Positions 9,348 through 29,128 of a stretch of DNA of 32,000 nucleotides are shown here, piece after piece. Source of the stretch: an uncultured Candidatus Odyssella sp. Its GTDB lineage: Bacteria; Pseudomonadota; Alphaproteobacteria; Bin65. The stretch covers positions 18,956 through 50,955 of the forward strand of contig CAYZSG010000008.1 of the NCBI GenBank assembly GCA_964481045.1, given 5' to 3'. The first letter of the stretch is position 1; every line of letters begins with the position of its first letter. Under the pieces are notes generated by a model that made no database searches, was not told the DNA's origin, and worked only from the letters and a program-made list of their open reading frames with translations. A program made the translations under genes and the position numbers.

Positions 9348-9352
9348 CGCGC

Positions 9353-11514
<2,162 letters not shown>

Positions 11515-11733: not shown

Positions 11734-12681
11734 ATGTTTTGTTCTAATCAAGAGAACCCCGCCGCCTTGACAGGCCGCGCCCGCCGTTGTGTCTCGTCGC
11801 CCTTCATCGTACGCGCACGGACACCGACCTTGGCCACCGCCGCACCCACCGCCGAAACGCCGTCCGGCAAGGGCGCCGGGGACGAGAACTTCCCGGTCGG
11901 CTCATTCCTGCTGCCGAAGGCGCTGCGGCCGCGCGTGGCGATCTTCTACGCCTATGCGCGCGCGATCGACGATATCGCCGACAATCCCGAACTCTCCGCC
12001 GAGGAGAAGATCGCGCGCCTCGACGGCTTCGACCGCGCGCTGACCGGGGCCAGTGACGACCCCGCCTACGCCAAGGCGATCCGCGTGCGCGAGACGATGG
12101 CCGGCACCGGCGACATCATCCGCCATTGCCGCGACCTGATCCTCGCGTTCAAGCAGGACGCGGTGAAGCTGCGCTACAGGGACTGGGACGATTTGATGGG
12201 CTACTGCATCAAATCCGCCGCGCCCGTGGGCCGCTTCCTGCTGGATCTGCACGATTGCCCGCCGAGCGGCTATCCCGCTTCCGACGCGCTCTGCAACGCG
12301 CTCCAGGTCATCAACCACCTCCAGGATTGCAAGGAGGATTTCCGGCGGCTCAACCGCGTCTATCTGCCCGGCGATTGGCTGGCGGCGGAAGGCAGCGCGG
12401 TGGAGGATCTCGACCGCGCGGCGGCGACGCCGGGTCTGCGCCGCACGCTCGACCGCTGCCTCGACGGCACCGAGGCGCTGCTGCGCGAGGCGAAGACCTT
12501 GCCGGGCAAGCTTCCGAACCGGCGCCTCGCGATGGAATCGGCCGCGATCGTGAGCCTCGCCGAAAAGCTGACCGCGATGCTGCGCCGGCGCGACCCCGTG
12601 GCCGGGCGCGTGGCGCTGGGCAAGCCGGGCACCCTGTTGCACGCGCTGATCGGCGTGGCCCGCTACTGGCTCTGGCGCTGA
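11734..12681 (+). CDS. hpnC: Hydroxysqualene synthase HpnC (squalene/phytoene synthase family)
   Basis: GDENFPVGSFLLPKALRPRVAIFYAYARAIDDIADN is the first Asp-rich motif, and QDCKEDFRRLNRVYLPGDWL is the second. It lies next to hpnD, hpnE and shc. The start is uncertain: the ATG at 11734 lies in AT-rich, non-coding-looking sequence. The in-frame TTG at 11830 (ATAAPTAETPSGKG...) or the TTG at 11767 are alternatives. Confidence 0.85.
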   Translation: MFCSNQENPAALTGRARRCVSSPFIVRARTPTLATAAPTAETPSGKGAGDENFPVGSFLLPKALRPRVAIFYAYARAIDDIADNPELSAEEKIARLDGFDRALTGASDDPAYAKAIRVRETMAGTGDIIRHCRDLILAFKQDAVKLRYRDWDDLMGYCIKSAAPVGRFLLDLHDCPPSGYPASDALCNALQVINHLQDCKEDFRRLNRVYLPGDWLAAEGSAVEDLDRAAATPGLRRTLDRCLDGTEALLREAKTLPGKLPNRRLAMESAAIVSLAEKLTAMLRRRDPVAGRVALGKPGTLLHALIGVARYWLWR

Positions 12682-14040: not shown

Positions 14041-14907
14041 GTGCCCGTGACCAACACCCTCACCGCCACCGATTTCGAAGCGCGCGACCATGTGCACAAC
14101 GTGGTCGAGGCGTCGGGCACGTCGTTCATGCAGGGCATGCGCCTGCTGCCCGAGGAGCGGCGCGAGGGCATGTTCGCCGTCTATGCGTTCTGCCGCGAGA
14201 TCGACGACGTCGCCGACGAGCCGGCGCCCGTTGCCGACAAGATGACGCGCCTGCGCGAATGGCGGCGCGAGATCGAACGCATCTACGAAGGCAAGCCGCA
14301 GACGCTGACCGGCCGCGCGCTGCTGCCGATCGTGCGGGAATACGGCCTCGACCGCGCCGATTTCCTGGCACTCATCGACGGCATGGAGATGGACGCGGTG
14401 GAAGACATCCGCGCGCCCACCATCGCGCGGCTCGAGCTCTATTGCGACCGCGTCGCCGGCGCCGTGGGGCGGCTTTCGATCCGGGTCTTCGGCGCCGTCG
14501 AGCCGCAGGCGAAATCGGTGGCGCGGCATCTGGGCCAGGCGCTTCAGCTCACCAATATCCTGCGCGACCTGAAGGAAGACGCCGAGCACGGGCGGCTCTA
14601 CCTGCCCGCCGAGCTCCTCGACGCGAACAGCGTGAAGACGCGCGAGCCGTTCGAGGTCCTGCGCCATCCAGCGCTCGGCGCGATCTGCGCCGAAATCGCC
14701 GCGCGCGCGCGCCAGCACTATCAGGCGGCGGCCGAGGCGATGCGCAAATGCCGGCGCGGCCCGATGCGCCCGGCACGCGCAATGGGCGCCATCTACCGCG
14801 CCTATCTCGACGGCCTCGATCGCCGCGGCTGGACGAAGCTCGACGAGAAGGTGCGGCTCTCGAAGCTCAAAAAGGTTTGGATCGCGCTGCGCTACGGGCT
14901 GTTCTAG
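14041..14907 (+). CDS. hpnD: Presqualene diphosphate synthase HpnD (squalene/phytoene synthase family)
   Basis: ASGTSFMQGMRLLPEERREGMFAVYAFCREIDDVADE and LRDLKEDAEHGRLYLPAELL. The GTG start at 14041 has no clear SD, and the GTG at 14047 is also possible. Confidence 0.85.
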   Translation: MPVTNTLTATDFEARDHVHNVVEASGTSFMQGMRLLPEERREGMFAVYAFCREIDDVADEPAPVADKMTRLREWRREIERIYEGKPQTLTGRALLPIVREYGLDRADFLALIDGMEMDAVEDIRAPTIARLELYCDRVAGAVGRLSIRVFGAVEPQAKSVARHLGQALQLTNILRDLKEDAEHGRLYLPAELLDANSVKTREPFEVLRHPALGAICAEIAARARQHYQAAAEAMRKCRRGPMRPARAMGAIYRAYLDGLDRRGWTKLDEKVRLSKLKKVWIALRYGLF

Positions 14908-15124: not shown

Positions 15125-16390
15125 ATGACTCTCACGCCCTCATCCACCGTCCACGTCATCGGCGCCGGGGTCGCCGGGCTTTCGGCCGCGGTGCGCGCGT
15201 GCGAGGCGGGCGCGCGCGTGATCGTGCACGAGGCGGCGGGCCAGGCCGGCGGACGGTGCCGCTCGTTCCACGACGATCTGCTCGGCGCCGAGATCGACAA
15301 CGGCAATCACCTGCTGCTCTCGGGCAACCGTTCGGCAATGCGCTTCCTCGCGACTGTCGGCGCCGCGCGCGAATTGCTCGTGATGCCGACCGCGGCGATC
15401 CCGTTCCTCGATCTCGAGACCGGCGAGCGCTGGACCGTGCGGCCGAATGCCGGGCCGATCGGCTGGTGGATCTTCACGCCGGGCCGCCGTGTCGCCGGCA
15501 GCCGCGCTTCGCACTATCTCGCGGCCATCAGGCTGGCGCGCGCCGGCAACGCCAGCGTCGCCGATCTTTTCGGCCGGCAGACGCCGACCTTCCGCCGCTT
15601 CTGGGAGCCGCTGGCCGTGGCCGTGCTCAACACCGCCGCCGCCGAGGGCGCGGCAAAGCTGCTGTGGCCGGTGATGACCGAAACCATCGGGCGCGGCGCC
15701 GCCGCCGCCCGCCCCTGCATCGCGCGCGACGGGCTCTCCAAGGCATTCGTCGATCCCGCGCTGAAGTGGCTCGCCGCGCGCGGGGCCGAAATTCGCTTCA
15801 ACGACCGCCTGCGCGCGATGCGCATCGAAGACGGGCGCGCGGCGGCGCTCGCGTTCGGCGAAGGCGAAACGGCGCTGGGGCCGGACGACCGCGTGGTGCT
15901 GGCCGTGACGCCGCCGGTGGCGTCCTCGCTGCTGCCGGGGCTCGCGGTGCCCGACGATTTCCGGCCGATCGTGAACCTGCACTACAAGCTCGCGGCGCCC
16001 GCCGCGCTGCCGGGCGGCCTGCCGCTGCTCGGCCTCGTTGGCGGCACGGCGCAATGGCTGTTCGTGCGCGCGAACATCCTCTCGGTCACGATCAGCGCCG
16101 GCGAGCGCGAGGTGGATCAGTCGGCCGAAACCCTGACCGAAACGGTGTGGCGCGACATCGCGAAGGCACTGGCGCTCGGCAACGCGCCGCCGCCGCCCTG
16201 CCGCGTGGTGAAGGAGAAGCGTGCGACCTTCGCGCAGACGCCGGCGCAGGTGGCGAAACGGCCGAAAGCCAATGCCGGCCCGCGCAATCTCGTTCTCGCC
16301 GGCGACTGGACCGACACCGGCCTGCCGGCCACGATCGAAGGCGCGATCCGCTCGGGCGAGACCGCGGTCCAGGTGTTACGGAACGTATAA
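15125..16390 (+). CDS. hpnE: Hydroxysqualene dehydroxylase HpnE (FAD-dependent amine-oxidase-like oxidoreductase)
   Basis: N-terminal dinucleotide-binding fold VHVIGAGVAGLSAAVRACEAGARVIVHEAAGQAGGRCRSF, a C-terminal LAGDWTDTGLPATIEGAIRSG, and a position between hpnD and shc. Confidence 0.85.
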   Translation: MTLTPSSTVHVIGAGVAGLSAAVRACEAGARVIVHEAAGQAGGRCRSFHDDLLGAEIDNGNHLLLSGNRSAMRFLATVGAARELLVMPTAAIPFLDLETGERWTVRPNAGPIGWWIFTPGRRVAGSRASHYLAAIRLARAGNASVADLFGRQTPTFRRFWEPLAVAVLNTAAAEGAAKLLWPVMTETIGRGAAAARPCIARDGLSKAFVDPALKWLAARGAEIRFNDRLRAMRIEDGRAAALAFGEGETALGPDDRVVLAVTPPVASSLLPGLAVPDDFRPIVNLHYKLAAPAALPGGLPLLGLVGGTAQWLFVRANILSVTISAGEREVDQSAETLTETVWRDIAKALALGNAPPPPCRVVKEKRATFAQTPAQVAKRPKANAGPRNLVLAGDWTDTGLPATIEGAIRSGETAVQVLRNV

Positions 16391-16511: not shown

Positions 16512-18464
16512 ATGAACATCCACACCCCCCGCCCGGCCGAGCCCGACCTTGCGGCGCTCGATACGTTGATCGCCGAGCAGGCCGGCCGCCTCGAAGCCGA
16601 GCAGCGCGGCGACGGCCATTGGGTGTTCGAGCTCGAGGCCGACGCGACGATTCCGGCCGAATACATCCTCTATCGCCACTTCCTCGCCGAGATCGACGAC
16701 GCGTACACGCGCGACCTCGAACCGAAGATCGCGGTCTATCTCCGCCGCATCCAGGGCGCGCATGGCGGCTGGCCGCTGTTCCATGGCGGCGATTTCGACA
16801 TGAGCGCGTCGGTGAAGGCCTATTTCGCGCTGAAGGCCGCGGGCGATTCGCCGGACGCGCCGCACATGGCGCGCGCGCGCGCGGCGATCCTCGCGCGGGG
16901 CGGCGCCGAGCGCAGCAACGTATTCACCCGCTCGCTGCTGGCGCTGTGGGGCGAGGTGCCGTGGCGCGCCGTGCCGGCGATGCCGGTCGAGCTGATGCTG
17001 CTGCCGAAGTGGTTTCCGTTCCACCTGAGCAAGGTGTCGTACTGGTCGCGCACGGTGATCGTGCCGCTCGTCGTGCTGATGGCGCTGAAGCCGCGCGCGA
17101 AGAACCCCAAGGGCATCCGCATCGCCGAGCTCTTCCAGCAGCCGCCCGAGAGCGTCCGCGACTGGCACAAGAATCCGACCGGGCGCTTCGCCGGCAACGT
17201 GCTGCTGAAGCTCGACCGGGTGTTCCGCGCGCTCGAGCCGGCAATGCGCGGTCGACGCCGCCGGCGCGCGATCAAGCGCGCGATGGATTTCGTCGAGGAG
17301 CGCCTGAACGCCGCGGACGGCCTCGGCGGCATCTTCCCGGCGATGGTCAACGCCGTGCTGGCGATGGAAGCGCTCGGCTACGCCAAGGACGATCCGCGCC
17401 TCGTCACCGCGAAGAAGGCCGTGGACGGCCTGCTCATCGAGAAGGAGCGCGAGGCCTATTGCCAGCCCTGCGTTTCGCCGGTGTGGGACACCGGCCTCGC
17501 CGCGCTGGCGATGATGGAAGCCAAGAACGAGCGCGAGAGCCCGATGATGGCGAAATGCGCCGACTGGCTGCTCGAGCGCGAGATCAAGGACGTGAAGGGC
17601 GACTGGTCGTGGCAACGCCCCGGCCTGGCGCCCGGCGGCTGGGCGTTCCAGTACCGCAACGACTACTATCCGGACGTCGACGACACCGCCGTGGTGGCGA
17701 TGGCGCTCGACCGCATGAACGATCCGCGCGCCAAGGCCGCGATCCAGCGCGCCGAAGCGTGGATCCTCGGCATGCAGAGCAAGAACGGCGGCTGGGGCTC
17801 GTTCGACGCCGACAACGACAAGTATTACCTCAACAACATCCCGTTCGCCGATCACGGCGCGCTGCTCGATCCGCCGACCGCCGACGTGAGCGGCCGCTGC
17901 CTCGCGATGCTCGCGCAGCTCGGCTACAAGAAGACCCATCCGGCCGTCGCGCGCGCGATCGAGTATCTCAAGAACGAGCAGGAGGCGGACGGCTCGTGGT
18001 TCGGCCGCTGGGGCACGAATTACGTTTACGGCACCTGGTCGGTGCTGACCGCGCTCAACGCCGTCGGCGAGGATCCGCAGCAGCCCTACATCCAGAAGGC
18101 GATCGCGTGGCTGAAATCGCGTCAGCGCGGCGATGGCGGATGGGGCGAGGACGGCGCCACCTATTGGCAGGAGCGCCGCGCCGAGGCGAAGGAAAGCACG
18201 CCCTCGCAGACGGCGTGGGCGACCTTGGCGCTGATGGCCGCCGGCGCCATCGACGACGAGGCCGTCGCGCGCGGCATCGCCTATCTCCAGGACGCGCCGC
18301 GCGAGGGCGTTCGCTGGAAGGAAGAGTGGTACACGGCGGTCGGCTTCCCGCGCGTGTTCTATCTCCGCTATCACGGCTACGCGGCCTATTTCCCGCTCTG
18401 GGCGCTGGCGCGCTATCGCAACCTGAAGCGCCGCAACGCGCGCTCTGTCTCCTGGGGCCTCTGA
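16512..18464 (+). CDS. shc: Squalene-hopene cyclase
   Basis: The catalytic DxDDTA motif (YYPDVDDTAVVAMAL), repeated QW motifs (QGAHGGWP, QSKNGGWG, QEADGSWFGRWG, QRGDGGWGE), and the N-terminal GDGHWVFELEADATIPAEYIL. The inner ATG at 16512 (MNIHTPRP) is in frame with track ORF 16221..18464. The upstream part of that ORF overlaps hpnE and is not credible. Confidence 0.95.
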   Translation: MNIHTPRPAEPDLAALDTLIAEQAGRLEAEQRGDGHWVFELEADATIPAEYILYRHFLAEIDDAYTRDLEPKIAVYLRRIQGAHGGWPLFHGGDFDMSASVKAYFALKAAGDSPDAPHMARARAAILARGGAERSNVFTRSLLALWGEVPWRAVPAMPVELMLLPKWFPFHLSKVSYWSRTVIVPLVVLMALKPRAKNPKGIRIAELFQQPPESVRDWHKNPTGRFAGNVLLKLDRVFRALEPAMRGRRRRRAIKRAMDFVEERLNAADGLGGIFPAMVNAVLAMEALGYAKDDPRLVTAKKAVDGLLIEKEREAYCQPCVSPVWDTGLAALAMMEAKNERESPMMAKCADWLLEREIKDVKGDWSWQRPGLAPGGWAFQYRNDYYPDVDDTAVVAMALDRMNDPRAKAAIQRAEAWILGMQSKNGGWGSFDADNDKYYLNNIPFADHGALLDPPTADVSGRCLAMLAQLGYKKTHPAVARAIEYLKNEQEADGSWFGRWGTNYVYGTWSVLTALNAVGEDPQQPYIQKAIAWLKSRQRGDGGWGEDGATYWQERRAEAKESTPSQTAWATLALMAAGAIDDEAVARGIAYLQDAPREGVRWKEEWYTAVGFPRVFYLRYHGYAAYFPLWALARYRNLKRRNARSVSWGL

Positions 18465-18718
18465 GCCCGGCCGATTGGCCATCAGGCCTAGCGCGCGGCC
18501 GATGCACGCGTCGCGCCGATGTGATAAAGAAGCGCCTCCCGGCTCCGACGCGGGCACCGTCGGCTGCTCAAGGGATTTCATAAGAGAAGTCGCCGGCAGC
18601 GATCCGGCACCATCGGCTTGAACACGAAACGGCGATCGGGCCCAGGCGCCGGATCGCGCCTCGGAGGATTTCCGGTGCCGGCGGGCCGCGCCCGCTCGCG
18701 CCCATTGCGGGGAACGAC

Positions 18719-19699
18719 ATGGGCAAGTCTGCTTCGATTCCGGCGCCAGCCGCGTTTTTGCGCAAGCGGGCGGCGGCGCTCAGCCACGCGCTTCTCGGAT
18801 TGATCGCGGCGGCGCTGTTGGCGCCCGCGGCTTCCGCCGAGATGCAGGTGCGGACGATCGCCGTCGGCGGCGTCGCGCGCGACTACCTTCTCTATGCACC
18901 GGCAATGCGCTCGGTTGCGGCGGATGGCGGCGTGCCGCTGGTGGTGGCGCTGCATGGCGGCAACGCGGTGGCCGACATGATGAGCCTCTATTCCCGTTTC
19001 AATGAAATCGCCGCGCGCGAGCAGTTCGCCGTCGCCTATCCCTACGGCGTCGGCCGCTGGTGGAACGACGGACGCCACTACGATGGCCGAGCGGAAAGCA
19101 GCGCCGACGACGTGGCGTTCATGCGTGCGCTCGTCGCCGACGCGGGCGCGCAGATCAAGATCGACCGGAGGCGCGTGTTCGCGACCGGTATATCGAACGG
19201 CGGCTTCATGAGCTTCCGCCTCGCCTGCGAAGCCGCGGACCTGTTCGCGGCGGTGGCGACCGTGGCCGCGACGATGCCGGCCGAGCTCGGCACGCGCTGC
19301 CGGCCCGCGAAGCCGGTGCCGGTGCTGCTGATCCACGGCACGGCCGACGCGCTCGTTCCCTACATCGGCGGCCATGCGCGGACCGGGAGCACGCTGCGCG
19401 GCACGATCTGGTCCGCCGACCGCAGCATCGCGTTCTGGGCCGCGCGCAATGGCTGCCCCGGCGCGCCGGCGACGCGCGTGCTGCCCGACCTCGACCCGGC
19501 GGATGGCTCGCGCGTGATCGAATCGGACTACCGCGGCTGCGCGGGCGCGCCGGCGGCGCTGCTGCGCATCGAGGGCGGCGGGCACACCTGGCCCGGCGGC
19601 GTGCAGATCCTGCCCACGGCGATGCTCGGCACGACCAACCGCGATATCGACGCGAGCGAAGCGATCTGGCGCTTCTTCAAGGCGGCGCCGGCGCGCTAG
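18719..19699 (+). CDS. Secreted alpha/beta-hydrolase esterase (polyhydroxybutyrate-depolymerase / LpqC-like family)
   Basis: Signal peptide LLGLIAAALLAPAASAEM, followed by PLVVALHGG, the nucleophile elbow GISNGG, LLIHGTAD and GGGHTWPGG. This order is typical of COG3509-type esterases. Confidence 0.75.
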   Translation: MGKSASIPAPAAFLRKRAAALSHALLGLIAAALLAPAASAEMQVRTIAVGGVARDYLLYAPAMRSVAADGGVPLVVALHGGNAVADMMSLYSRFNEIAAREQFAVAYPYGVGRWWNDGRHYDGRAESSADDVAFMRALVADAGAQIKIDRRRVFATGISNGGFMSFRLACEAADLFAAVATVAATMPAELGTRCRPAKPVPVLLIHGTADALVPYIGGHARTGSTLRGTIWSADRSIAFWAARNGCPGAPATRVLPDLDPADGSRVIESDYRGCAGAPAALLRIEGGGHTWPGGVQILPTAMLGTTNRDIDASEAIWRFFKAAPAR

Positions 19700-19751
19700 G
19701 CCGCGTTCCGTTCCGGGGAACCGGCGAGGATGCTCGCCCGTTTCCCCGTTC

Positions 19752-20975
19752 ATGTCTGCAAGCGCGTCGCACCGGGCGGCCTCGGCAAGCCTCGCCCTCA
19801 GCAATCTCAGGGCCGTCCTCATCCTGATCGTGCTCGCGTTCCATGGCGTGCTGCCGTATCTCGGCTCGCTGCCGGCGGGCGCGCACGCGTTCGACGACCC
19901 CGAGCGGCGCTGGCAGGCTTTCCCGATCGTCGATAGCCAGCGCTTTTTCGGCTTCGACCTGTTCTGCGCCTGGCAATACCTCAGCATGATGGCGCTGATG
20001 TTTTTCCTCTCGGGCCTGTTCGTGGCGCCGAGCCTCGCGCGCAAGGGCGCGCGCGAGTTCCTGACCGGACGGCTGCTGCGCATCGGCGTGCCGCTGGTGC
20101 TCGCGGTCGCGATCCTGACGCCGCTGGCCTATTACGCCTCGTATCGCGCGACCGCCGCCGATCCGAGCTTCGCCGCGTTCTGGCAGGAATGGACGGCGCT
20201 ACCGTTCTGGTCGCCGGGCCCGCAATGGTTCCTCATCCTGCTGCTGGCGTTCAGCGTGCTCGCCGCGGCCTTGCATTTCCTCGCGCCGGGCTTGCGTGAC
20301 CGGATGTTCGCCGCCGCCGCGCGCGCCGCAGACCGGCCGCTGCGCTTCTTCGCCGGCCTCGCGGCGGTCTCGGCGCTCGCCTACGTTCCGCTCGCCCTCG
20401 CCTTCTCGCCGTGGGGCTGGACGAATTTCGGGCCGGTGGCGTTCGAGACGACGCGCATCGCGCACTACGCCGTCTACTTCCTCGCCGGCTACGCCGTCGG
20501 CGCCGCCGGCCTCGGTCGCGGCATGCTCGCCTGCGACGGCCCGCTGGCCCGCAATTGGACCAAGTGGCTTGCCGCCGCCGCGCTCGGTTTCGGGCTGTGG
20601 GCCGGCAGCAGCACGCTGACGCTCGGCGCCTGGAGCGAGGTTCCGCTTGCCGCGCGGTTCCTGGCGGCAGTAGCGCTCGTCTTCGGCTGCGCCGCGGGCT
20701 GCATGTTCGCGCTCGCGCTGGCGCTGCGCTTCGGCCGCAAGCGCCGCGCGGTGTTCGACAGCCTTTCCGCCAACGCCTACGGCATCTATCTGCTGCACTA
20801 CGTGCCGGCGGTGTGGCTGCAATTCGCGTTGCTCGACGCGCCGCTGCCCGCGTTCGTGAAGGGCGCGATCGTGTTCGCCGCCACGCTGCTCGTCACCTGG
20901 CCGCTCGCCGCGGCGATCGGCACTATCTCTCTGCGAAGCCTGCTGCCGGGCATGAAGCGCGTGCGTAGCGCGTAG
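19752..20975 (+). CDS. Acyltransferase family 3 (OafA/YrhL-like) integral membrane protein
   Basis: 407 aa with about 10 hydrophobic helices. The N-terminal LSNLRAVLILIVLAFHGVLPY resembles the conserved R..(A/I)...V...H opening of acyltransferase-3 proteins. Confidence 0.7.
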   Translation: MSASASHRAASASLALSNLRAVLILIVLAFHGVLPYLGSLPAGAHAFDDPERRWQAFPIVDSQRFFGFDLFCAWQYLSMMALMFFLSGLFVAPSLARKGAREFLTGRLLRIGVPLVLAVAILTPLAYYASYRATAADPSFAAFWQEWTALPFWSPGPQWFLILLLAFSVLAAALHFLAPGLRDRMFAAAARAADRPLRFFAGLAAVSALAYVPLALAFSPWGWTNFGPVAFETTRIAHYAVYFLAGYAVGAAGLGRGMLACDGPLARNWTKWLAAAALGFGLWAGSSTLTLGAWSEVPLAARFLAAVALVFGCAAGCMFALALALRFGRKRRAVFDSLSANAYGIYLLHYVPAVWLQFALLDAPLPAFVKGAIVFAATLLVTWPLAAAIGTISLRSLLPGMKRVRSA

Positions 20976-21014
20976 CCTGCCCGAATTCGCCGCCAAATCG
21001 AGGGGAATGCCTGC

Positions 21015-22148
21015 ATGCCGCTGGTCGTGACGCTTGCGCTGCGCAATCTGCTGCACGACCGCCTGCGGCTCGCGGCGACGCTGATCGGCATCGTCTTCTC
21101 GATCGTGCTGGTCACCGTGCAGATGGGCCTCTATCTCGGCTTCGGCCGCATGGTGACGGTCGTCATCGATCGCGCCGAGACCGATCTCTGGGTGATGACG
21201 AAGGGCGGCACGTCGTTCGAAGGGCCCTCGGTGCTCGAGATGAAGGACCGCGACGCCGCGCTGGCGACGGCCGGCGTCGAGCGCGCGACCGCCGTCGTCA
21301 CCGGCTTCGCCGATTGGCGCCTGCCGAGCGGCGCGCTGACGCCGGCGATGATCGTCGGCATCGACCTCGACAGCCCCGGCCTCCGGCCCTGGAACGTTGT
21401 GGAAGGCGAGATTGCCTCGCTGCGCGTGACCGGCGCGGTCGCCGTCGATCTCGCCTATGCGGACCGGCTCGGCGTCTCGCGCATCGGCGAAAAGGCCGAG
21501 ATCCGCCAGCGGCCGGTGACGGTGACGATGCTCACGCGCGGCATCCGCTCGTTCACGACGACGCCCTACATCTTCATGGAAGACGACGCCGCGCGCGCAA
21601 TGACCGGCCTGCCGCCCGACAAGGCCTCGTATCTGCTGATCCGCCTCAAGGCGGGCGCGGACCTCGAAGCCGTGCGCGGCGCGCTGCGCGCGAAGATCCC
21701 GAAGGCCGAGGTGCTGACTTCGGCCGAGTTCGCGGACCGCAGCCGCACGTTCTGGCTGTTCAGCACCGGCGCGGGCGCGGCGCTGTTCGCCGGCGCGGTG
21801 CTCGGCATCGTCGTCGGCACCGCGATCGTCGCGCAGACGCTCTACGCGAGCACGAAGGAACACATCAACGAGTTCGCGACCCTGCGCGCGATCGGCTCCT
21901 CGCGCGGCTACGTTTACGCGGTGATCGTGTGCCAGGCCGTGTTCAGCGCGCTGATCGGCTTCGCGATCGCGGCGCTCATGGCGCTCGGAGTGGTGTGGGC
22001 GACGGCCGGCGGCGCGCTTCCGATCGTGATCACGCCGATGCTGATGGCGGCACTGTTCGGGCTCGCCGTCATCATGTGCATCGGCGCCGGCCTCGCCGCG
22101 ATCCTGCGCGTGATGCGCGTCGATCCGGCCACCGCGTTCACGCGATGA
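21015..22148 (+). CDS. ABC transporter permease, FtsX/MacB-type (DevC-like)
   Basis: LRNLLHDRLRLAATLIGIVFSIVLVTVQ is the N-terminal TM. It is followed by a ~220-aa extracytoplasmic domain and three C-terminal TM helices ending in RVDPATAFTR. GAGGGGA lies upstream of the ATG. The stop overlaps the ATPase start. Confidence 0.75.
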   Translation: MPLVVTLALRNLLHDRLRLAATLIGIVFSIVLVTVQMGLYLGFGRMVTVVIDRAETDLWVMTKGGTSFEGPSVLEMKDRDAALATAGVERATAVVTGFADWRLPSGALTPAMIVGIDLDSPGLRPWNVVEGEIASLRVTGAVAVDLAYADRLGVSRIGEKAEIRQRPVTVTMLTRGIRSFTTTPYIFMEDDAARAMTGLPPDKASYLLIRLKAGADLEAVRGALRAKIPKAEVLTSAEFADRSRTFWLFSTGAGAALFAGAVLGIVVGTAIVAQTLYASTKEHINEFATLRAIGSSRGYVYAVIVCQAVFSALIGFAIAALMALGVVWATAGGALPIVITPMLMAALFGLAVIMCIGAGLAAILRVMRVDPATAFTR

Positions 22149-22873
22149 TACGCGCGCCCACGACCGCGGCCGTCATCGACGCCGCGAACGTCGCCAAGAC
22201 GCTGGGCAGCGGCGCCGCCGAGGTGCAGGCGCTGCGCGGCGTCAACGTGGCGCTCGCCGCGGGCGAGCTGGCGCTGCTCATGGGCCCCTCGGGCAGCGGG
22301 AAGACGACGCTGCTCTCGATCCTCGGCTGCATGCTGCGGCCCACGCGCGGCACGGTGCGCGTCTGCGGCGAGGCGGCCGATGCGCTCGGCGCGGAAGATC
22401 TCGCGCGGCTGCGGCGGCGCCATATCGGCTTCGTGTTCCAGAACTATCACCTGTTCCCGACCTTGACGGCGGCCGAGAACGTGCGCATCGCGCTCGACAT
22501 CCGCGGCGTGCCGGCGCGCGCGGCGAAAGACAAGGCGCGCCGCGCGCTCGCCGAGGTGGGGCTCGCGCACAAGGTGAGGTCGTTTCCACGCGCGCTCAGC
22601 GGCGGCGAGCAGCAGCGCGTCGCGATCGCCCGCGCGATCGTGGGCGACCCCGCCGTGATCCTCGCCGACGAGCCCACCGCGGCGCTCGACGGCGAGAACG
22701 GCCAAGCGGTGATGGAGATCCTCGCGCGCCTCGCCGGCGGCGGGCGCGGCGTACTGGTCGTCACCCACGATACGCGCCTGCTGCCGTTCGCCGACCGCAT
22801 CATCCGCATCGAAGACGGGCTGATCCGCGGTGAGCAGAATGCGCCGGCCGCGCCCGAGCGCCGCTGTGCCTGA
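22145..22873 (+). CDS. ABC transporter ATP-binding protein (MacB/LolD/DevA-like)
   Basis: Inner ATG at 22145 of track ORF 21314..22873, overlapping the permease stop as ATGA. Walker A GPSGSGKTT, Q-loop FQNYHLFP, signature LSGGEQQRVAIARA, Walker B VILADEPTAALD, and the H-loop VTHD. Confidence 0.9.
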   Translation: MIRAPTTAAVIDAANVAKTLGSGAAEVQALRGVNVALAAGELALLMGPSGSGKTTLLSILGCMLRPTRGTVRVCGEAADALGAEDLARLRRRHIGFVFQNYHLFPTLTAAENVRIALDIRGVPARAAKDKARRALAEVGLAHKVRSFPRALSGGEQQRVAIARAIVGDPAVILADEPTAALDGENGQAVMEILARLAGGGRGVLVVTHDTRLLPFADRIIRIEDGLIRGEQNAPAAPERRCA

Positions 22874-22878
22874 GCCGG

Positions 22879-22910
22879 CGCCGCGCCGCTGCGGCAAACC
22901 GGCGCGGCGG
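22879..22910 (+). terminator. GC-rich hairpin immediately after the ABC ATPase stop (possible intrinsic terminator with a weak T tract)
   Basis: cgccgcgccg (22879..22888) pairs with cggcgcggcg (22900..22909) across an 11-nt loop, followed by tccttgcgtttcccc. The T tract is poor, so this is tentative. Confidence 0.35.
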
Positions 22911-23106
22911 TCCTTGCGTTTCCCCTAATATTCCAGTGGCTTGAACGCTGGCACCGCGCGCGGTTCGGGAGTATAACGCGCGCGGGATTGGGGACCGCGG
23001 GTCTTTGAAATCTCCGACGCACCAGGCCATCGAGCAACTTTGCTCGCGCGCTAATCCCGCGCGCTGTGTTGCTCGTGCCGGGTGCCGCACGCTCGGCGGC
23101 TAATTC

Positions 23107-23850
23107 ATGCGGCAGATCGGCATCATTTCGGGACTGACCAGCGAGTTGCGCTGCCTGGGCTTCGGCCTCGACCGGCCGGCGCACCTCGTCACCTTCGCCG
23201 CCGCCGGCGACCCCGAGCGCGCCCGCGCGCAGGCGCTGGGCTGGGCGGCCGACGGGCGCATCAAGGCGCTGATGAGCTTCGGCCTTTGCGGCGGTCTCGA
23301 CCCGGAACTGGCGCCGGGCCACGTCGTCGTCGCGCACCGCATCGCATTGCCCGAAGGCGGCGCGCTCGAATTCGACGCGCGCTGGGCGCACGCGATCGCC
23401 GCGCGCATTGCCGGCGCGCGCGTGGCGCCGCTGCTCGGTGCGCGCGACGTGGCGGCAACGGCGGCCGAGAAGCGCGCGCTGTTCGAGCGCCATGGCGTGC
23501 CCGCGATCGACATGGAGAGCCGTGGCGTGGCCGAGGCCGCGCGCGAAGCCGGCGTGCCGTTCGTGGCGCTGCGCGCGGTCGCCGATCCGGCCGGCCGCAC
23601 ATTGCCGAAGGTGGCCGCGCGCGCGATCGACGCGCGGGGCCGCGTCCGTCCGTTCCGCGTGCTGCTCGGCCTCGTGACCCGGCCGCACGACATCCCTGCG
23701 CTGATGGCGCTCGGCGGCGACGCAAGGCGCGGCTACGAGGCGCTCGCAGCCGCCGGCATGCGCGCGCTGCTGCCCGATCTCGTGCCGAACCCGCAGCCCG
23801 CCGCTGCCCCCGGCGCGATGGCGCCCGCGCTGGTGCCGCAGGGCTCCTGA
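23107..23850 (+). CDS. hpnG: Hopanoid-associated phosphorylase/nucleosidase HpnG (PNP/MTAN fold)
   Basis: MRQIGIISGLTSE, SFGLCGGLDP, VPAIDMESRGVAEAA and FVALRAVADPA are typical of HpnG-type nucleosidases. It lies in the hpn neighbourhood. Confidence 0.8.
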   Translation: MRQIGIISGLTSELRCLGFGLDRPAHLVTFAAAGDPERARAQALGWAADGRIKALMSFGLCGGLDPELAPGHVVVAHRIALPEGGALEFDARWAHAIAARIAGARVAPLLGARDVAATAAEKRALFERHGVPAIDMESRGVAEAAREAGVPFVALRAVADPAGRTLPKVAARAIDARGRVRPFRVLLGLVTRPHDIPALMALGGDARRGYEALAAAGMRALLPDLVPNPQPAAAPGAMAPALVPQGS

Positions 23851-23866: not shown

Positions 23867-24445
23867 ATGAACAAGGCGTATGTCGTCCCGCTCGTTTTCG
23901 GTGGTTTGGTCGGCGCGACCGCGGTGGCGGGCGCGGTGATCCTCGCCGTGTCGCTCGACGGCAATGCCGGCGCGGGCGCCGCGATCGAGCTCGTTCCCGG
24001 CGTGCGCCCCGCCTATGCCGGGCGCCCGGCGCCGGCGCGACTCGTCGGCAAATGGTCGTCCAGCCGGCTCTCGATGATCAACTACCGCGACCGCTATAGC
24101 GGCAGCTTCGCGCCGCCTTCGGGCTCGATCTTCAGCTACACGATCGCCGCCGACGGCACGTTCGAGTTCTCGGGCTACATGCAGAGCTCGCTCTATCACT
24201 GCACGATCGTGATTTTCCGCTGGCAGCGCGGAACCCTGGTTGCGGATGGCCAGAGCCTCACGCTGACACCGCGCGAGGGCCGGCAGCACTATAAGGACAG
24301 CTGCCGCGCCGGGTCGGAGAAGGAAAAATCCGCCGTCGACGAGCCCGCGCGCTACAGCTTCACCATCGAGACCGAGGGCGCGCACACGGTGCTCGTGATG
24401 AAGAAGGCCAATGGCGAGGACTGGGGCCGCTTCTACAGGAAGTAG
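23867..24445 (+). CDS. Hypothetical membrane-anchored protein
   Basis: 192-aa ORF starting 16 nt after the hpnG stop. It has an N-terminal TM (VVPLVFGGLVGATAVAGAVILAV) followed by a beta-rich soluble domain (GKWSSSRLSMINY...YTIAADGTFEFSGYMQ...). I recognise no motif. Confidence 0.55.
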   Translation: MNKAYVVPLVFGGLVGATAVAGAVILAVSLDGNAGAGAAIELVPGVRPAYAGRPAPARLVGKWSSSRLSMINYRDRYSGSFAPPSGSIFSYTIAADGTFEFSGYMQSSLYHCTIVIFRWQRGTLVADGQSLTLTPREGRQHYKDSCRAGSEKEKSAVDEPARYSFTIETEGAHTVLVMKKANGEDWGRFYRK

Positions 24446-24647
24446 CGCCCGGCCGTAGTCCCCGCATCCATCCCCCGAATTCGGCCAACCTTCCGGGAAC
24501 TTTTCTGCAGGTTCCACATTATGCGTACGGGCTGGTGCACGCTCGCGCCGGGCCCCAGCGCGCGTCCGGATTTCCAACGCGAGAAAAGTTGGAACAGGCC
24601 GCGCGCCGCAACGAAAAAAAACGTGCCGGAGTCAGGGGTTAGCCTCG

Positions 24648-26219
24648 ATGAACGCAGTATTCTCGGCGCTGGCCGGGGTGCAGGCGATTCTGTGCGCGCT
24701 TTTGATGGCGCACGTGGCGCTGCAGCTGACGCTCGCGCGCAGCTATCTGCGCCGGCCGCGCAAAGGGCGCTGGGCCGGGACGCCGCCCTCCGGCGGCCGC
24801 AAGACCTTGCCGTTCGTCACGGTCCAGCTTCCGGTCTTCAACGAGCGGCACGTGATCGAGCGGCTGATCGACGGCGTGGCCGCGCTCGATTGGCCGCGCG
24901 ACCGGATCGAGATCCAGGTGCTCGACGACTCCACCGACGAGACCGTGGCGCGCGCGGCGGCGCGCGTGGCGCATCATCGCGCGGCGGGCCTCGACATCAA
25001 GCATCTGCGCCGCGAGAGCCGCGCCGACTTCAAGGCCGGCGCTCTGCGCCACGGCCTTTCGCTGGCGAAGGGCGAGCTGATCGCGATCTTCGACGCGGAC
25101 TTCCTGCCCGACGCCGATTTCCTGCGGCTCACCGTTCCGCATTTTGCCGATCCCACGATCGGCATGGTGCAGACGCGCTGGGCGCACGCGAACCTCGACG
25201 ATTCGCTGCTGACCCGGGTGCAGGGCCTGATGCTCGACACGCACCTGACCGTCGAGCAGGTGGGCCGCGCCGAGCAGAACTGCTTCTTCAACTTCAACGG
25301 CACCGCCGGCGTCTGGCGCGCCGTCGCGATCCGCGACGCGGGCAATTGGAGCGGCGACACGCTGACCGAAGATCTCGATCTCTCCTATCGCGCGCAACTT
25401 CGCGGCTGGCGCTTCCACTACATCGACGCGCCCGCCGCGCGCGGCGACCTGCCCGACGATGTGCGCGCGTTCCGCTCGCAGCAATACCGCTGGATCAAGG
25501 GCGGCGCGCAATGCGCGCGCAGCCTGCTGCCGCGCATCCTGGCCGCGCCGATCGGCTGGAAGGCCAAGCTCCAGGGTGCGGAGCATCTGCTCGAGACGAG
25601 CTTCTATCTCGTGTTCCTCGCGCTGATCATCTTGACCGTGCCGATGGCGGCACTTTCGAACATCGAGGTGAACGTCGCCTGGATCGTTCCCGTTGGCCTT
25701 TTCGCGCTGAGCATGGGCGCGCTCGCCCTCGTCTATGCGGCGCCGCAGCGGGAGATGATCCGTAGCCCCGGCGGCGCCCGGCGCTTCCTCGCGCTGTGGA
25801 GCGCCTTCATCGTCGTCTCCGCGGGCCTCGTCGTTCACAACGGCCTTGCCGCGCTCTCCGGCCTGCTCGGCCGCAACGGCGAGTTCGTGCGCACGCCGAA
25901 GCGCGATACGCAGAGAAGCACGGGTTGGCCCGTCGGCGATGCGTATCTGCCGAAGGGCCTCGGGCGCAGCTTCGCGCTCGAAGCCGCGCTGTGGGCCTAT
26001 CTCGGCGCCGGCATCGCCGTCTCGGTCTGGAACGGCACGCCCTATTTCATGCTCGGGCCGATCGTGGCGTTTATCGGCCTTTCCTACATGCTCGCGCTGT
26101 GCCTTCGCGACTTCGCGCGGCAATGGAGCGAGGCCGCGCGTATGCGAGCAGCCGGCCGCGGGCGCCGCGATCGGCGGCTGGCCCACGGCGGCAAGCGGCG
26201 CGCGGCGCACCGCGGTTAA
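24648..26219 (+). CDS. Processive-type family-2 glycosyltransferase (CslA / lipid glucosyltransferase-like)
   Basis: VTVQLPVFNERHVIERLIDGVAALDWPRDRIEIQVLDDSTDET, IFDADFLPD, TEDLDLSYR and the QxxRW motif (RSQQYRWIKG). One N-terminal TM and several C-terminal TM helices. Confidence 0.85.
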   Translation: MNAVFSALAGVQAILCALLMAHVALQLTLARSYLRRPRKGRWAGTPPSGGRKTLPFVTVQLPVFNERHVIERLIDGVAALDWPRDRIEIQVLDDSTDETVARAAARVAHHRAAGLDIKHLRRESRADFKAGALRHGLSLAKGELIAIFDADFLPDADFLRLTVPHFADPTIGMVQTRWAHANLDDSLLTRVQGLMLDTHLTVEQVGRAEQNCFFNFNGTAGVWRAVAIRDAGNWSGDTLTEDLDLSYRAQLRGWRFHYIDAPAARGDLPDDVRAFRSQQYRWIKGGAQCARSLLPRILAAPIGWKAKLQGAEHLLETSFYLVFLALIILTVPMAALSNIEVNVAWIVPVGLFALSMGALALVYAAPQREMIRSPGGARRFLALWSAFIVVSAGLVVHNGLAALSGLLGRNGEFVRTPKRDTQRSTGWPVGDAYLPKGLGRSFALEAALWAYLGAGIAVSVWNGTPYFMLGPIVAFIGLSYMLALCLRDFARQWSEAARMRAAGRGRRDRRLAHGGKRRAAHRG

Positions 26220-26653: not shown

Positions 26654-29128
26654 CTACTCGAACACTTTCGGATCGATCGGCCCGTCGAACGTCACGGTCT
26701 CGTAGGCCAGAACGATGCGGCCCAGAATCGGGACGGTGATGGCCGTGGCGAACGGCACGCGGATGCCGTTCACCGCGCGGTAGTCGGAATAGTCGGCGCT
26801 GACCGAGAGCGGCACCAGCGTGTCGCCGATATAGACCGGCGGCTCCTCGCGCAGCACGAGGTATGAGCCGGACGAAATGTAGAGCCGGGTGGGCGCAAGA
26901 TTCGGCGGCGCCATTTCGACGACGAAAACATTCTCGCCGTTCACCACGGTTTCGCCGACGAGGGTCGCCACGGCGTAACGCTGCTTCCAGCGATAAAGCG
27001 GATGCGGCACCGCGTTGTGGCGGGCGGCTTCGAGCGCCTTGCCGGTCGCAACCGAACGCGCCCCATCATAGGACACGTCGTAGGAGCCGCGTTCGGTCGT
27101 GACCGAGCGCGTGCGGATGACCACCTTGCCGAACGCGCCGAGCTCGAAGGCGGTCGCGCGCTTGCCGGCCTCAACGTGATCGAGGTACGGCCCGTCCAGC
27201 CCGTCCTTCGCGGCGACGGCGCGGCCAATCGCGCGCATCGAGACCAGCCGGTCGAGCGCCTCGGCGCCGCCGGCCGCCGCTGCGGCGTGCTCCAGAATCT
27301 CGCGCCCGCGCGCCGGATCCTTCACCGGCGCCGAGCCCTCGGCGAGCATGTCCTGCTGCGCGGAGGGCGTTTCGAGCGTGAAGCCCACCACGGCTCCGCT
27401 GGCCGCGCGGCGCACATGCAGGCGATGCGTCGCGGGGCCGCCTTCCAGCCGGTAGTGGTTGCCGCCGTCCGGCACGAGCGGCCGCGGCTCGTCGCCGGCG
27501 ACGACGAGCGCGACGCCGCTCCGGAACGGCGCGATCTCCTTCGTGAGCTTTTTGTCTGCGCTCTGATAGCCGCCGATCAGCGCGGCTTCGGGGCCGCTTT
27601 GCCCGGCCCGCGCGCGCAGAAGCCAGGCATCGTCCTTCTTCAGCAGCGGGATGTCGCCGCCGGAATCCGAAGGCGGCTTGAGCAGCGCGGCCTCGATGCG
27701 GCCCGGCATCGCTTTCGACTCGGCGACGCTCATCGTGTATCCGCCCGATCCCTCGACGTCGTAGAGATTGGTCCCGGCGGGCTTCAACATCAGCGGTGGC
27801 GCGCCCGGAAGAATCATCGCGAAGCCGGCGCCCTCGCGCTTCACCTCGAGCCTGAGATCGTCGCTCGAAAAGTAATGTCCGATGAGCCGCTCCATCGCGA
27901 TGGCGGGGCCCTGAGGCGCCGGGCGCGTCGGAGGCGCCGGAAGCGTGGGCTGCACGACGGCTTGCCAGAACAGATCCTTGGCGATCGCCGCCAGCGCAGA
28001 ATTGTCCTGGTTGGTCAGCAGCGCGAAAGACAGCGCCGTATCGGGCACGAGCACGACGATCGCGGTGAAGCCGGGAATGTTGCCATGGTGATGCGCCACG
28101 AGCAGCCCCGCGCGGGTTTCGAGCATGTATCCGAGGCCATAGCTGCCGTCGGGACTGTGGCGCTCGAAAAGCCGCGCAAAGGCGGCCGGGGCGACGCGCA
28201 CGCCCGGCGCCTGCCCCCGGGCGTTGAGGAAGCGCAGCCATGCGCCCATGTCTTGCGCGGTGCTGTTGAGGGCGCCCGCCGGCGCGATCGCGGCGAGATC
28301 GGCGGGCTTCGCGGCCGCGGCCGTCCCGCTCGCGGCGCTGCCGGTGTAGCCGGTCGCACGGTTCGGGCTGGACGCGAGTTCGGCGAGCGTGAACGTGGAG
28401 GATTTCATGCCGAGCGGCGCCAGGAACCGCTCGGTCATGAACCGCTCGTAGGTCGTGCCGTAGGCGCGCGCCACCGCTGCGCCTGCAAGCGAGACCATCG
28501 TGTTGTTGTAGAGGAATTTCTCGCGCAGCCTGGCGGCCGGCACCGCGCGGCCCGCGAGCTCGATCAGCTCGTCCTGGGTGAAAGAGCCGAACAGGAACGT
28601 GAAATCCGAGCGGTCGAGGCCCGTCCGGTGCGCCAAAAGGTCGATGAAATTGACCTTCGCATCGGCCTCGGGATCGCGCAGGCGAAAGCTCGGCACGAAG
28701 CGGCGCGGGTGATCCTCGAACGCCAGTTTGCCTTCGCCGACGGCCAGCGCCACGGCCACCGCCGTGAACTGCTTGGTGACCGACGCGATCGGGAACACCG
28801 TGTCCGCCGTGACCGCCGCCGGCGCTTCGCGGGAACGCTGGCCAAGCCCCGCGATGCGCAAGATGCGATCGCCCTGCGCGACCACGATGGCGGCGCCGAC
28901 GACGCCAAGCTCCTTCCGCTTCGCCTCGAGCTGCGCGACGAATCCTTCGACGCGGCGCTCGAGCGCGGGCGGGCTGGAGGGCTTCGGTTCCTGGGCGCGT
29001 GCGCCGAGCGATAGGCACGCGATGGCCGCTATCGGCAGAACGGATCGCGCGACGCGCGGCGCCGCCGCTCGTGCGATCCCGCGGGGACTCGCGATTTCCG
29101 AAGACCGGCCAGACCCGACACCGAACAT
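26654..29128 (-). CDS. Beta-lactamase-fold serine hydrolase (class C / PBP4*-like) with a large C-terminal extension
   Basis: Part of ORF 26654..29329. The inner ATG at 29128 has GGAGG 6 nt upstream and gives a signal peptide (SVLPIAAIACLSLGARAQE). The SxxK nucleophile motif is VFPIASVTKQFTAVAV, and HHHGNIPGF lies near the expected KTG/HxG position. About 450 further residues carry no motif I recognise. Confidence 0.8.
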   Translation of the reverse strand: MFGVGSGRSSEIASPRGIARAAAPRVARSVLPIAAIACLSLGARAQEPKPSSPPALERRVEGFVAQLEAKRKELGVVGAAIVVAQGDRILRIAGLGQRSREAPAAVTADTVFPIASVTKQFTAVAVALAVGEGKLAFEDHPRRFVPSFRLRDPEADAKVNFIDLLAHRTGLDRSDFTFLFGSFTQDELIELAGRAVPAARLREKFLYNNTMVSLAGAAVARAYGTTYERFMTERFLAPLGMKSSTFTLAELASSPNRATGYTGSAASGTAAAAKPADLAAIAPAGALNSTAQDMGAWLRFLNARGQAPGVRVAPAAFARLFERHSPDGSYGLGYMLETRAGLLVAHHHGNIPGFTAIVVLVPDTALSFALLTNQDNSALAAIAKDLFWQAVVQPTLPAPPTRPAPQGPAIAMERLIGHYFSSDDLRLEVKREGAGFAMILPGAPPLMLKPAGTNLYDVEGSGGYTMSVAESKAMPGRIEAALLKPPSDSGGDIPLLKKDDAWLLRARAGQSGPEAALIGGYQSADKKLTKEIAPFRSGVALVVAGDEPRPLVPDGGNHYRLEGGPATHRLHVRRAASGAVVGFTLETPSAQQDMLAEGSAPVKDPARGREILEHAAAAAGGAEALDRLVSMRAIGRAVAAKDGLDGPYLDHVEAGKRATAFELGAFGKVVIRTRSVTTERGSYDVSYDGARSVATGKALEAARHNAVPHPLYRWKQRYAVATLVGETVVNGENVFVVEMAPPNLAPTRLYISSGSYLVLREEPPVYIGDTLVPLSVSADYSDYRAVNGIRVPFATAITVPILGRIVLAYETVTFDGPIDPKVFE

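Follow-up and report, generated by a model that had tools for sequence, protein, structure and literature searches.

The stretch analyzed here, 32,000 nucleotides of contig CAYZSG010000008.1 from an uncultured Candidatus Odyssella sp. (hereafter the window; about 70% G+C), carries four genes between the hopanoid genes shc (squalene-hopene cyclase) and hpnG. They encode a secreted serine esterase, a transmembrane acyltransferase of the Acyl_transf_3 (AT3) family, and a permease and an ATPase of an ATP-binding cassette (ABC) transporter that resemble DevC and DevA, respectively (Table 1). An earlier note, made from the sequence alone, had described this cassette as a candidate hopanoid tailoring and export module. 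The gene identities given there hold: profile searches, with Pfam and NCBIfam scores compared to the model cut-offs, place all four open reading frames (ORFs) above the Pfam thresholds. The ORFs lie on the plus strand and show coding-type composition as judged by G+C at third codon positions (GC3, 0.87–0.93). Direct reading of the sequence also confirms the tight spacing reported for them: 52 nt, 39 nt and a 4-nt ATGA overlap between the permease stop codon and the ATPase start codon. The reported 4.4 kb between shc and hpnG is to be corrected, as 4,642 bp separate the shc stop from the hpnG start and the ORFs alone cover 4,155 bp.

Relatives of the AT3 gene were mapped by homology-anchored tblastn in 166 non-redundant loci (80 from GTDB species, 80 on metagenome contigs, and the others on contigs retrieved by exact look-up), with fetched flanks of up to 8–10 kb. 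The cassette interrupts a once-tight shc-hpnG junction, as an insertion specific to this lineage. Two sister contigs, L094 and L095 (shc 75% and 71% identical, respectively), share the window synteny queG-queF-tgt-queA-hpnC-...-hpnE-shc and have no cassette, with hpnG starting 20 nt and 6 nt after shc, respectively; these junctions support the word “inserted” used in the earlier note. They also bear on its statement that shc is usually followed by hpnG/hpnH: the direct shc-hpnG succession is found in the sister lineages, and in the window hpnH lies away from hpnG. Within the narrow clade of the window (shc 84–91% identical), the cassette always adjoins shc, at AT3 identities down to 61% and with the esterase gene shifting its position. 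The full order shc-EST-AT3-DevC-DevA-hpnG (EST, esterase) is found in the P0006 contigs (AT3 80% identical) and in L084 (78%); shc-EST-AT3-DevC can be followed as far as the contig end in L086/L087 (70%) and L096 (66%); L089/L090 (61%) have the rearranged order shc-AT3-DevC-DevA-EST-hpnG; and the L085 lineage has a P450 gene instead of hpnG after DevA. The best AT3 identity among the GTDB species loci is at most 62%. The cassette has no flanking direct or inverted repeats and shows no composition shift; recent transfer is thus not indicated.

The gaps that flank the cassette (254 and 233 nt) are far longer than those inside it, and both contain conserved non-coding sequence. Right after the shc stop codon lies an imperfect palindrome, CATCAGGnCTA...GATG (CATCAGGCC...GGCCGATG), with a TGTGATAA/TGTGCTAT block downstream; both are conserved in the same four clade members, and the palindrome together with the TGTGCTAT-like block may be an operator/promoter of the cassette. 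Ahead of hpnG, a block of ~130 nt is shared with L084 (10560–10700) and L089 (14330–14470) at 71% mean column identity, and is thus kept in three lineages whatever gene precedes it (that of the ATPase in two of them and that of the esterase in the third). No further copy of this block occurs in the fetched loci, and it is probably an hpnG promoter/leader or operator that was acquired or evolved after the insertion. RNA structure in this leader is unsupported (the covariation term for the three sequences is unfavorable), and an Rfam scan of the window finds only a terC motif, away from the cassette. Consensus scans detect no sigma-70-like site at the junctions and terminator-like hairpins are weak only, with no convincing intrinsic terminator in the shc/esterase spacer; the hairpins after the DevA and shc stop codons fold no better than shuffled sequence. 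The conserved blocks in both flanking gaps suggest that the cassette and hpnG are under their own control regions and that the insertion broke the old shc-hpnG coupling. The embedding in the operon asserted in the earlier note is therefore unproven: the location on the same strand between shc and hpnG stands, and the conserved blocks speak for separate transcription.

The four cassette genes

The AT3 protein matches PF01757 with 88.8 bits (cut-off 31) over residues 16–386 and contains the motifs R20-X10-H31, R107-L-L-R110 and FFLSG (residues 84–88); R20, H31, R107 and R110 are invariant in 24 homologs. The corresponding motifs R/K-X10-H (in the first transmembrane helix) and RXXR are essential in OafA and Oac, and FFxSG is conserved (motifs defined in PMC7448272). 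The chain stops at residue 407, has no SGNH match and contains no domain besides AT3, so that it belongs to the AT3-only class rather than to the OafA/OatA-type fusions, in which a C-terminal SGNH domain comes after an 11th helix. The known members of this class, namely Oac, ExoZ/ExoH, NolL/NodX, OpgC/MdoC and MdmB/AcyA, share with it PF01757, the R-X10-H, RXXR and FFxSG motifs and the lack of an SGNH fusion, and likely also the mechanism, transmembrane acyl transfer from acyl-CoA. A precedent is provided by rhizobial NolL and NodX, which acetylate a lipo-oligosaccharide that is then secreted. In contrast to these enzymes, the window protein is no OpgC equivalog (44.8 bits for the MdoC/OpgC glucan succinyltransferase model NF003014, cut-off 338) and belongs to a separate subfamily, with at least 48% identity over hundreds of species, at least 535 species hits in GTDB, and the signature peptides GFDLFCAW and NAY[RG][MI]Y, the latter extending to NAY[RG][MI]Y[LM][LIV]H. 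It is also operon-fixed with an ABC pump, and its acceptor is possibly not a glycan. At the sequence level, neither the AT3 protein nor DevC matches a PDB entry.

The permease combines PF12704 (55.5 bits) and PF02687 (52.1 bits) and aligns over its full length (residues 6–375 of 377) with the devC model TIGR01185, at 116.5 bits against an equivalog cut-off of 290.35; it shares 57–64% identity with the permeases encoded after AT3 in the GTDB species loci. The ATPase (PF00005, 119.8 bits) contains a Walker A motif GPSGSGKT, a signature LSGGEQQR and a Walker B motif ILADEP, as read from the translation, and scores 215.1 bits with the DevA model TIGR02982 (cut-off 295.8), about equal to its scores with the MacB, FtsE and LolD models. 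The pair shares with the type VII tripartite ABC systems DevBCA-HgdD and MacAB-TolC the permease architecture, a MacB periplasmic core plus FtsX, and the separate ATPase, for which the DevA, MacB, FtsE and LolD models give the best scores. This transporter family is known for moving lipidic substrates from the inner membrane or periplasm. Unlike those systems, the window pair is far below the DevC and DevA cut-offs, has no adaptor and is always preceded by a dedicated AT3 gene. A tblastn search finds no homolog of a membrane-fusion adaptor (DevB/MacA/HlyD) within the window, and no gene for an outer-membrane factor (TolC/HgdD) is seen there.

The esterase belongs to the alpha/beta-hydrolase family of polyhydroxybutyrate (PHB) depolymerases and feruloyl esterases, with 41.9 bits for PF10503 (Esterase_PHB) and 161.3 bits for NF050058 (cut-off 150; residues 51–320 of 326). 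The presumptive catalytic residues, namely HGG79–81 (oxyanion), S159 in GISNG, D210 and H289, are invariant in 21 homologs. The N-terminus is like a signal peptide, as called in the earlier note, with an RKR stretch, a hydrophobic stretch and ASA read from the sequence. The passing NF050058 score, the GxSxG serine with the Asp, His and HGG residues, and the signal-like N-terminus are shared with the type 1 catalytic domain of extracellular short-chain-length polyhydroxyalkanoate (PHA) depolymerases. Genuine polymer depolymerases carry a linker and a C-terminal substrate-binding domain. The window protein has neither, the catalytic domain filling its 326 residues; it also stays below the cut-off of TIGR01840 (56.5 against 107.9 bits), and, judged from its place within an AT3-ABC cassette, it acts on a small ester rather than on polymer granules, as far as its position can suggest. 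The closest solved structures are those of feruloyl esterases (9j07, 8jh8) and of an esterase of the PHB-depolymerase family (8daj), so that the substrate cannot be read from the family.

The AT3-DevC-DevA module in other loci

The AT3, DevC and DevA genes are found in constant order wherever a locus carries them and is long enough. In 70 loci, DevA is directly followed by a DevB/HlyD-like adaptor gene, in 17 by an esterase of the hormone-sensitive-lipase (HSL) family (Abhydrolase_3), and in 7 by something else; the variant with a PHB-type esterase accounts for 7 loci. AT3 stands beside an HSL-type esterase without ABC genes in 5 loci and lacks DevC in 6 more, 2 of them beside hpn genes, and 54 contigs are too short to judge. 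Adaptor and esterase never occur together, none of the 70 adaptor loci having an esterase gene, and in two clades the esterase replaces the adaptor. Thus, the adaptor-less state noted earlier is real at this locus, within its 32 kb, and is a feature of the clade, not of the module, given that 70 related loci carry the adaptor.

Named hosts include Bradyrhizobium, Xanthobacteraceae, Rhodoplanes, Pseudolabrys, Pseudorhodoplanes and Roseiarcus. In a neighbor-joining tree of AT3 (no support values), the window clade forms a monophyletic group whose sister is the Bradyrhizobium adaptor clade; the clade with HSL-type esterases is separate, and Roseiarcus is distant. The AT3-DevC-DevA core is a portable envelope module of Hyphomicrobiales-type alphaproteobacteria, and in the window clade this module lost the membrane-fusion adaptor and gained a secreted esterase. 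Esterase coupling to AT3 arose several times and with unrelated hydrolases, the PHB type in one case and HSL-type Abhydrolase_3 proteins in the other. The HSL-type esterases match Abhydrolase_3 with 197 bits and the Pfam family of the Say1 steryl-acetyl hydrolase with only 51.7 bits. No description of an AT3 protein hard-wired to a MacB-type pump with an alternative adaptor or esterase was found in the literature searched; what is new is the arrangement with its interchangeable fourth gene, each part belonging to an already known family.

The mutual exclusion of adaptor and esterase at the fourth position would also fit a regulatory device in which DevC/DevA transports nothing and ATP-driven movement of the periplasmic domain acts as an on/off switch for the secreted esterase; periplasmic hydrolases are indeed regulated by MacB-family members, FtsEX among them. 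We consider such a switch highly improbable. The HSL-type esterases of the other adaptor-less clade have no obvious signal peptide in the N-termini inspected and would therefore be out of periplasmic reach; the window DevC has the same length (377 aa) as its adaptor-associated homologs and the same 57–64% identity to them; and the five loci with AT3 beside an esterase and no ABC genes indicate that the conserved pair is the acyltransferase and the esterase.

In six Bradyrhizobium-type loci, a PhaZ gene for an intracellular PHA depolymerase (532 bits) is convergent with the module. This neighborhood is taken as a coincidence because it is confined to one subclade.

Evidence for and against a hopanoid role

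AT3 genes from three separate branches of the tree border hpn genes: the window clade, two Roseiarcus loci, each from a different species, and the metagenome contigs L099 and L104. The Roseiarcus arrangements are shc-hpnG-AT3 (L067) and AT3-DUF308-ispA-hpnBCDE-shc (L068). In L099 and L104, the order is hpnC-hpnB / ispA-DUF308-DUF2147 / AT3, and the AT3 protein is 77% identical to the Bradyrhizobium adaptor clade; their close relatives L101 and L105 have the full arrangement DUF2147 / AT3-DevC-DevA-adaptor. Fragments of transposases or integrases of the insertion sequence (IS) type lie next to the DevC-less AT3 genes of L099 and L104 (Table 1), and IS activity may have removed the ABC genes from these loci.

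A divergent DUF2147 gene upstream of AT3 is present in 52 of 150 loci and is the commonest neighbor of the module elsewhere. DUF2147 is enriched near shc and hpnN in Hyphomicrobiales and has been proposed to be a lipocalin-like hopanoid shuttle, HpnT; DUF308 is among the frequent neighbors of shc (385 occurrences in a supplementary table of the same study, bioRxiv 10.1101/2025.07.29.667474). In the GTDB loci measured, the divergent DUF2147 gene lies 160–830 nt upstream of AT3 (e.g., L017, Table 1); in Roseiarcus L068, a DUF2147 gene comes directly after shc, and the window itself has none. Between AT3/DUF2147 and hpnB, genes for a DUF308/HdeD-like membrane protein and for an ispA-like polyprenyl synthase are met repeatedly (Table 1).

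We assign a probability of roughly 40% to the reading that fits these observations best, a system that acylates, extracts and deacylates an envelope lipid, in the window clade probably an extended hopanoid. The gene content, the intact catalytic motifs, the insertion and the neighborhood patterns are established by the analysis; the substrate, acyl donor and direction of transport in this proposal are inferred. The AT3 protein would take an acyl group, probably acetyl or another short one, from cytoplasmic acyl-CoA and transfer it across the inner membrane to a hydroxyl of a periplasm-facing amphiphile, as expected from the family mechanism. Characterized AT3 proteins use short acyl-CoAs as donors (acetyl, propionyl, succinyl, isovaleryl), and AT3 enzymes such as MdmB, AcyA and CarE acylate lipophilic macrolides, where non-sugar hydroxyls can serve as acceptors. 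The MacB-type DevC/DevA pair, driven by ATP, would then pull the acylated product from the outer leaflet or the periplasm; that this product is the cargo of the pump is suggested by the invariable AT3-DevC-DevA order. The product would be handed to the adaptor and an outer-membrane duct in the common variant of the module, or to a periplasmic acceptor in the window clade, where the secreted serine esterase might remove or transfer the acyl group. The latter step is suggested by the recurrent pairing of module and esterase: because different esterase families are repeatedly and independently paired with AT3 in these neighborhoods, with or without the pump, AT3 probably makes an ester that is later cleaved or transferred. 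In the window clade, the substrate would most likely be an extended hopanoid, a lipid with a carbohydrate-like polyol side chain derived from ribose, and the cassette would be a reversible acyl-tagging and trafficking system for hopanoids. A chemical precedent comes from the alphaproteobacterium Hypericibacter terrae, where bacteriohopanetetrols (BHTs) with an O-acylated side chain account for 80% of the bacteriohopanepolyols (BHPs), with no enzyme assigned to their formation.

The earlier note had named the RND protein HpnN as the only known hopanoid transporter family, a statement that is outdated as far as candidates are concerned, since HpnM, HpnS and HpnT have been proposed. The module resembles HpnN (RND/MMPL) and these proposed proteins in being an envelope transporter that lies inside or beside hpn clusters in three lineages and has DUF2147 as a neighbor. 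It differs from them in that its pump is of the ABC rather than the RND/MMPL type and in that it includes predicted acylating and deacylating enzymes. The cassette does not encode an HpnN-type RND/MMPL protein, and the one MMPL gene seen is that of the sister contig L094.

Several points weigh against a hopanoid role. No hpn gene is found in the fetched flanks of 157 of the 166 loci, so that linkage to hpn genes is the exception, and the Bradyrhizobium-type loci have none near the module; several genuine hpn genes are themselves often unlinked. All surveyed hosts belong to hopanoid-rich taxa, and taxonomic co-occurrence is thus confounded by phylogeny. None of the four cassette proteins matches an NCBIfam Hpn model, whereas the neighboring hpnC, hpnB, hpnD, hpnE and shc products do. 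The characterized acceptors of AT3 proteins are mostly glycans, and no link between Acyl_transf_3 and hopanoids was found in the literature searched. HpnT itself is a prediction only, and the survey of shc neighborhoods that proposed it flagged no AT3 protein, MacB-type permease or esterase (bioRxiv 10.1101/2025.07.29.667474). Relatives of the window esterase with 58–64% identity are found in the housekeeping context CoA-transferase / esterase / WYL / ruvX / gatCA, which indicates that the esterase was recruited from a common periplasmic family. The long flanking gaps with their conserved non-coding blocks suggest a promoter of the cassette's own, and an adaptor gene may lie elsewhere in the genome, the window being 32 kb of a 51-kb contig. 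The co-occurrence of cassette and hpn genes, which the earlier note had suggested as a check, therefore gives a divided answer: the two are linked in the window clade and two more AT3 lineages, and unlinked in 157 of the 166 loci. The proposed tailoring and export role is likewise supported in part, by the persistence of the cassette beside shc, the two further AT3 branches that border hpn genes and the DUF2147 association, and is opposed by the prevalence of unlinked loci and the generic esterase.

It is quite possible that the same combination of AT3, MacB-type export and esterase serves a glycan or lipid A, the position between shc and hpnG being a neutral insertion in one narrow clade (shc 84–91% identical). 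The preference of characterized AT3 proteins for glycans, the label “glucan biosynthesis protein C” that some sources give to relatives, the genes for a cellulose-synthase-like GT2 glycosyltransferase and an ExoD protein downstream, the long gaps suggestive of a separate transcription unit, and the 157 loci without an hpn gene in their flanks all agree with such a role. So does the lipid A of Bradyrhizobium, which has an acetylated fatty acid, 26:0(25-OAc), and for which no acetylating enzyme is named in the literature searched. However, three independent AT3 lineages beside hpn genes are hard to obtain by chance (by a rough estimate, regions up to 10 kb from an hpn cluster make up ~0.6% of a genome), DUF2147 is a preferred neighbor, the recruited esterases are of the lipase/HSL or PHB type rather than SGNH/CE-type glycan esterases, and the MdoC/OpgC score is far below the cut-off.

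Modification and efflux of a lipophilic small molecule, either secreted or foreign, in the manner of macrolides and unrelated to hopanoids, appears unlikely. MacB-type pumps with adaptors do export macrolides and small molecules, the adaptor form is the commonest one here (70 loci), macrolides are acylated by MdmB, AcyA and CarE, and one relative in the HSL family weakly matches chloramphenicol hydrolase. Yet the recurring neighbors are DUF2147, DUF308, ispA and hpn genes, with none for biosynthesis or resistance among them, and the module is a stable, family-wide chromosomal feature rather than a patchy accessory gene.

The earlier note had further suggested that the cassette might make the ester that links hopanoids to lipid A (HoLA), for which, as it correctly stated, no enzyme is assigned in the literature searched. 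Most named hosts of the module are Bradyrhizobium or related to it, and HoLA was described from this group; several relatives of the window esterase also match PF00756, which we take to be the family that contains the Ag85-type transferases. Nevertheless, synthesis or remodeling of HoLA by the cassette is hardly probable: beyond position nothing supports it, AT3 donors are short acyl-CoAs and not a C35 triterpenoid acid, the Bradyrhizobium-type loci have no hpn gene nearby, the common form with the adaptor lacks an esterase, and there is no obvious need for an ABC extractor.

The reading of the cassette as an acylation and transport system for hopanoids can be extended to a broader hypothesis that we regard as doubtful, namely, that reversible O-acylation steers bacterial hopanoid traffic. 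The AT3 subfamily would then be the first hopanoid side-chain O-acyltransferase, DevC/DevA would be a second, ABC-type extractor beside HpnN that passes its cargo to DUF2147/HpnT or an adaptor duct, and the variable esterases would remove the tag. If the hypothesis holds, natural acetyl tags could have been overlooked for decades because BHPs are usually chemically acetylated before analysis. The system would then be a prokaryotic counterpart of the sterol cycle of yeast, in which Atf2 and Say1 acetylate and deacetylate sterols (acylate, export, deacylate). The logic, applied to a polycyclic triterpenoid lipid, would be the same; the acyltransferase and the exporter are unrelated proteins, and the comparison is no more than an analogy. 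In bacteria, hopanoids take the place of sterols, and they are an important geochemical biomarker; the hypothesis bears on open questions on how they arrive in the outer membrane, how the O-acyl forms are made and how lipid A attachment occurs. It is directly testable because the module is present in cultured, genetically tractable Bradyrhizobium strains. Among these carriers, Bradyrhizobium sp. BWA-3-5 (L019) has the adaptor type, STM 3562 and ARR65 (L079 and L081) have the type with an HSL esterase, and B. hereditatis WSM 1738 (L071) is a further one. Even with a non-hopanoid substrate, a MacB-type pump wired to an AT3 enzyme would represent an unrecognized design for the handling of envelope lipids or glycans.

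Surrounding genes of the window

The features of the window, and those cited from related loci, are collected in Table 1. The shc start was chosen from relatives of 646 aa (relatives span 646–650 aa); the longest ORF begins at 16221.

Table 1. Positions of the genes, spacers and conserved elements discussed in the text
Feature	Sequence	Positions	Strand	Assignment or remark
650-aa ORF	window	3597–5549	-	good composition, no Pfam match
queG, queF, tgt, queA (queuosine set)	window	6885–11514	-	divergent to hpnC
284-aa ORF	window	8493–9347	+	good composition, no Pfam match
hpnC	window	11734–12681	+	NCBIfam equivalog score above cut-off
hpnB	window	12683–13843	+	NCBIfam equivalog score above cut-off
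hpnD	window	14041–14907	+	NCBIfam equivalog score above cut-off
hpnE	window	15125–16390	+	NCBIfam equivalog score above cut-off
shc, upstream flank of insertion	window	16524–18464	+	TIGR01507, 792 bits (cut-off 431)
Spacer shc/esterase, 254 nt	window	18465–18718		four-member clade alignment
Imperfect palindrome and following block	window	18470–18535	+	right after shc stop
Secreted serine esterase	window	18719–19699	+	PF10503; NF050058
AT3-only transmembrane acyltransferase	window	19752–20975	+	PF01757 (Acyl_transf_3)
DevC-like MacB-type ABC permease	window	21015–22148	+	PF12704 (MacB_PCD), PF02687 (FtsX)
DevA/MacB/LolD-like ABC ATPase	window	22145–22873	+	PF00005 (ABC_tran)
Spacer ATPase/hpnG, 233 nt	window	22874–23106		clade alignment
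Conserved block before hpnG, ~130 nt	window	22920–23060	+	
hpnG-like nucleoside phosphorylase, downstream flank of insertion	window	23107–23850	+	TIGR03468, 166 bits (cut-off 187); PF01048
192-aa membrane-anchored protein, then 523-aa GT2	window	23867–26219	+	weak Rot1 (PF10681) match in the former
891-aa protein	window	26654–29329	-	PF00144, 181 bits
terC RNA motif	window	29489–29546	+	RF03067, 64.6 bits (gathering score 39.9)
TerC/Alx-family gene	window	29531–30619		
Zinc-ribbon gene	window	30623–30964	+	
ExoD-family gene	window	30980–31651	+	
hpnH, cut by window edge	window	31659–32000	-	76% identical to L089 hpnH
DUF2147	L017	9129–9764	-	divergent, upstream of AT3
DUF2147	L068	20242–20637	-	directly after shc
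DUF308/ispA neighbor stretch	L099	5277–5900		
DUF308/ispA neighbor stretch	L104	3200–3823		
DUF308/ispA neighbor stretch	L105	1481–2101		
DUF308/ispA neighbor stretch	L068	11289–11951		
IS-type transposase/integrase fragment	L099	9263–9796	-	next to DevC-less AT3
IS-type transposase/integrase fragment	L104	2712–3086	-	next to DevC-less AT3

The hpnG gene is followed by genes for a small membrane-anchored protein and for a cellulose-synthase/PgaC-like GT2 protein, the latter kept after hpnG clade-wide (75–81% identity in L084 and L089). The possibility that the small Rot1-like protein is a hidden DUF2147/HpnT was rejected (hhalign probability 1.8%). The cut hpnH gene at the right edge of the window is preceded by the ExoD-family and zinc-ribbon genes, so that the hopanoid genes are scattered over ~20 kb among unrelated genes. 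The terC RNA motif lies ahead of the TerC/Alx-family gene and overlaps the ATG used for the ORF; the true TerC start is therefore probably further downstream. In the 891-aa protein, a beta-lactamase/transpeptidase-like domain lies in the N-terminal half, and the long C-terminal half is uncharacterized.

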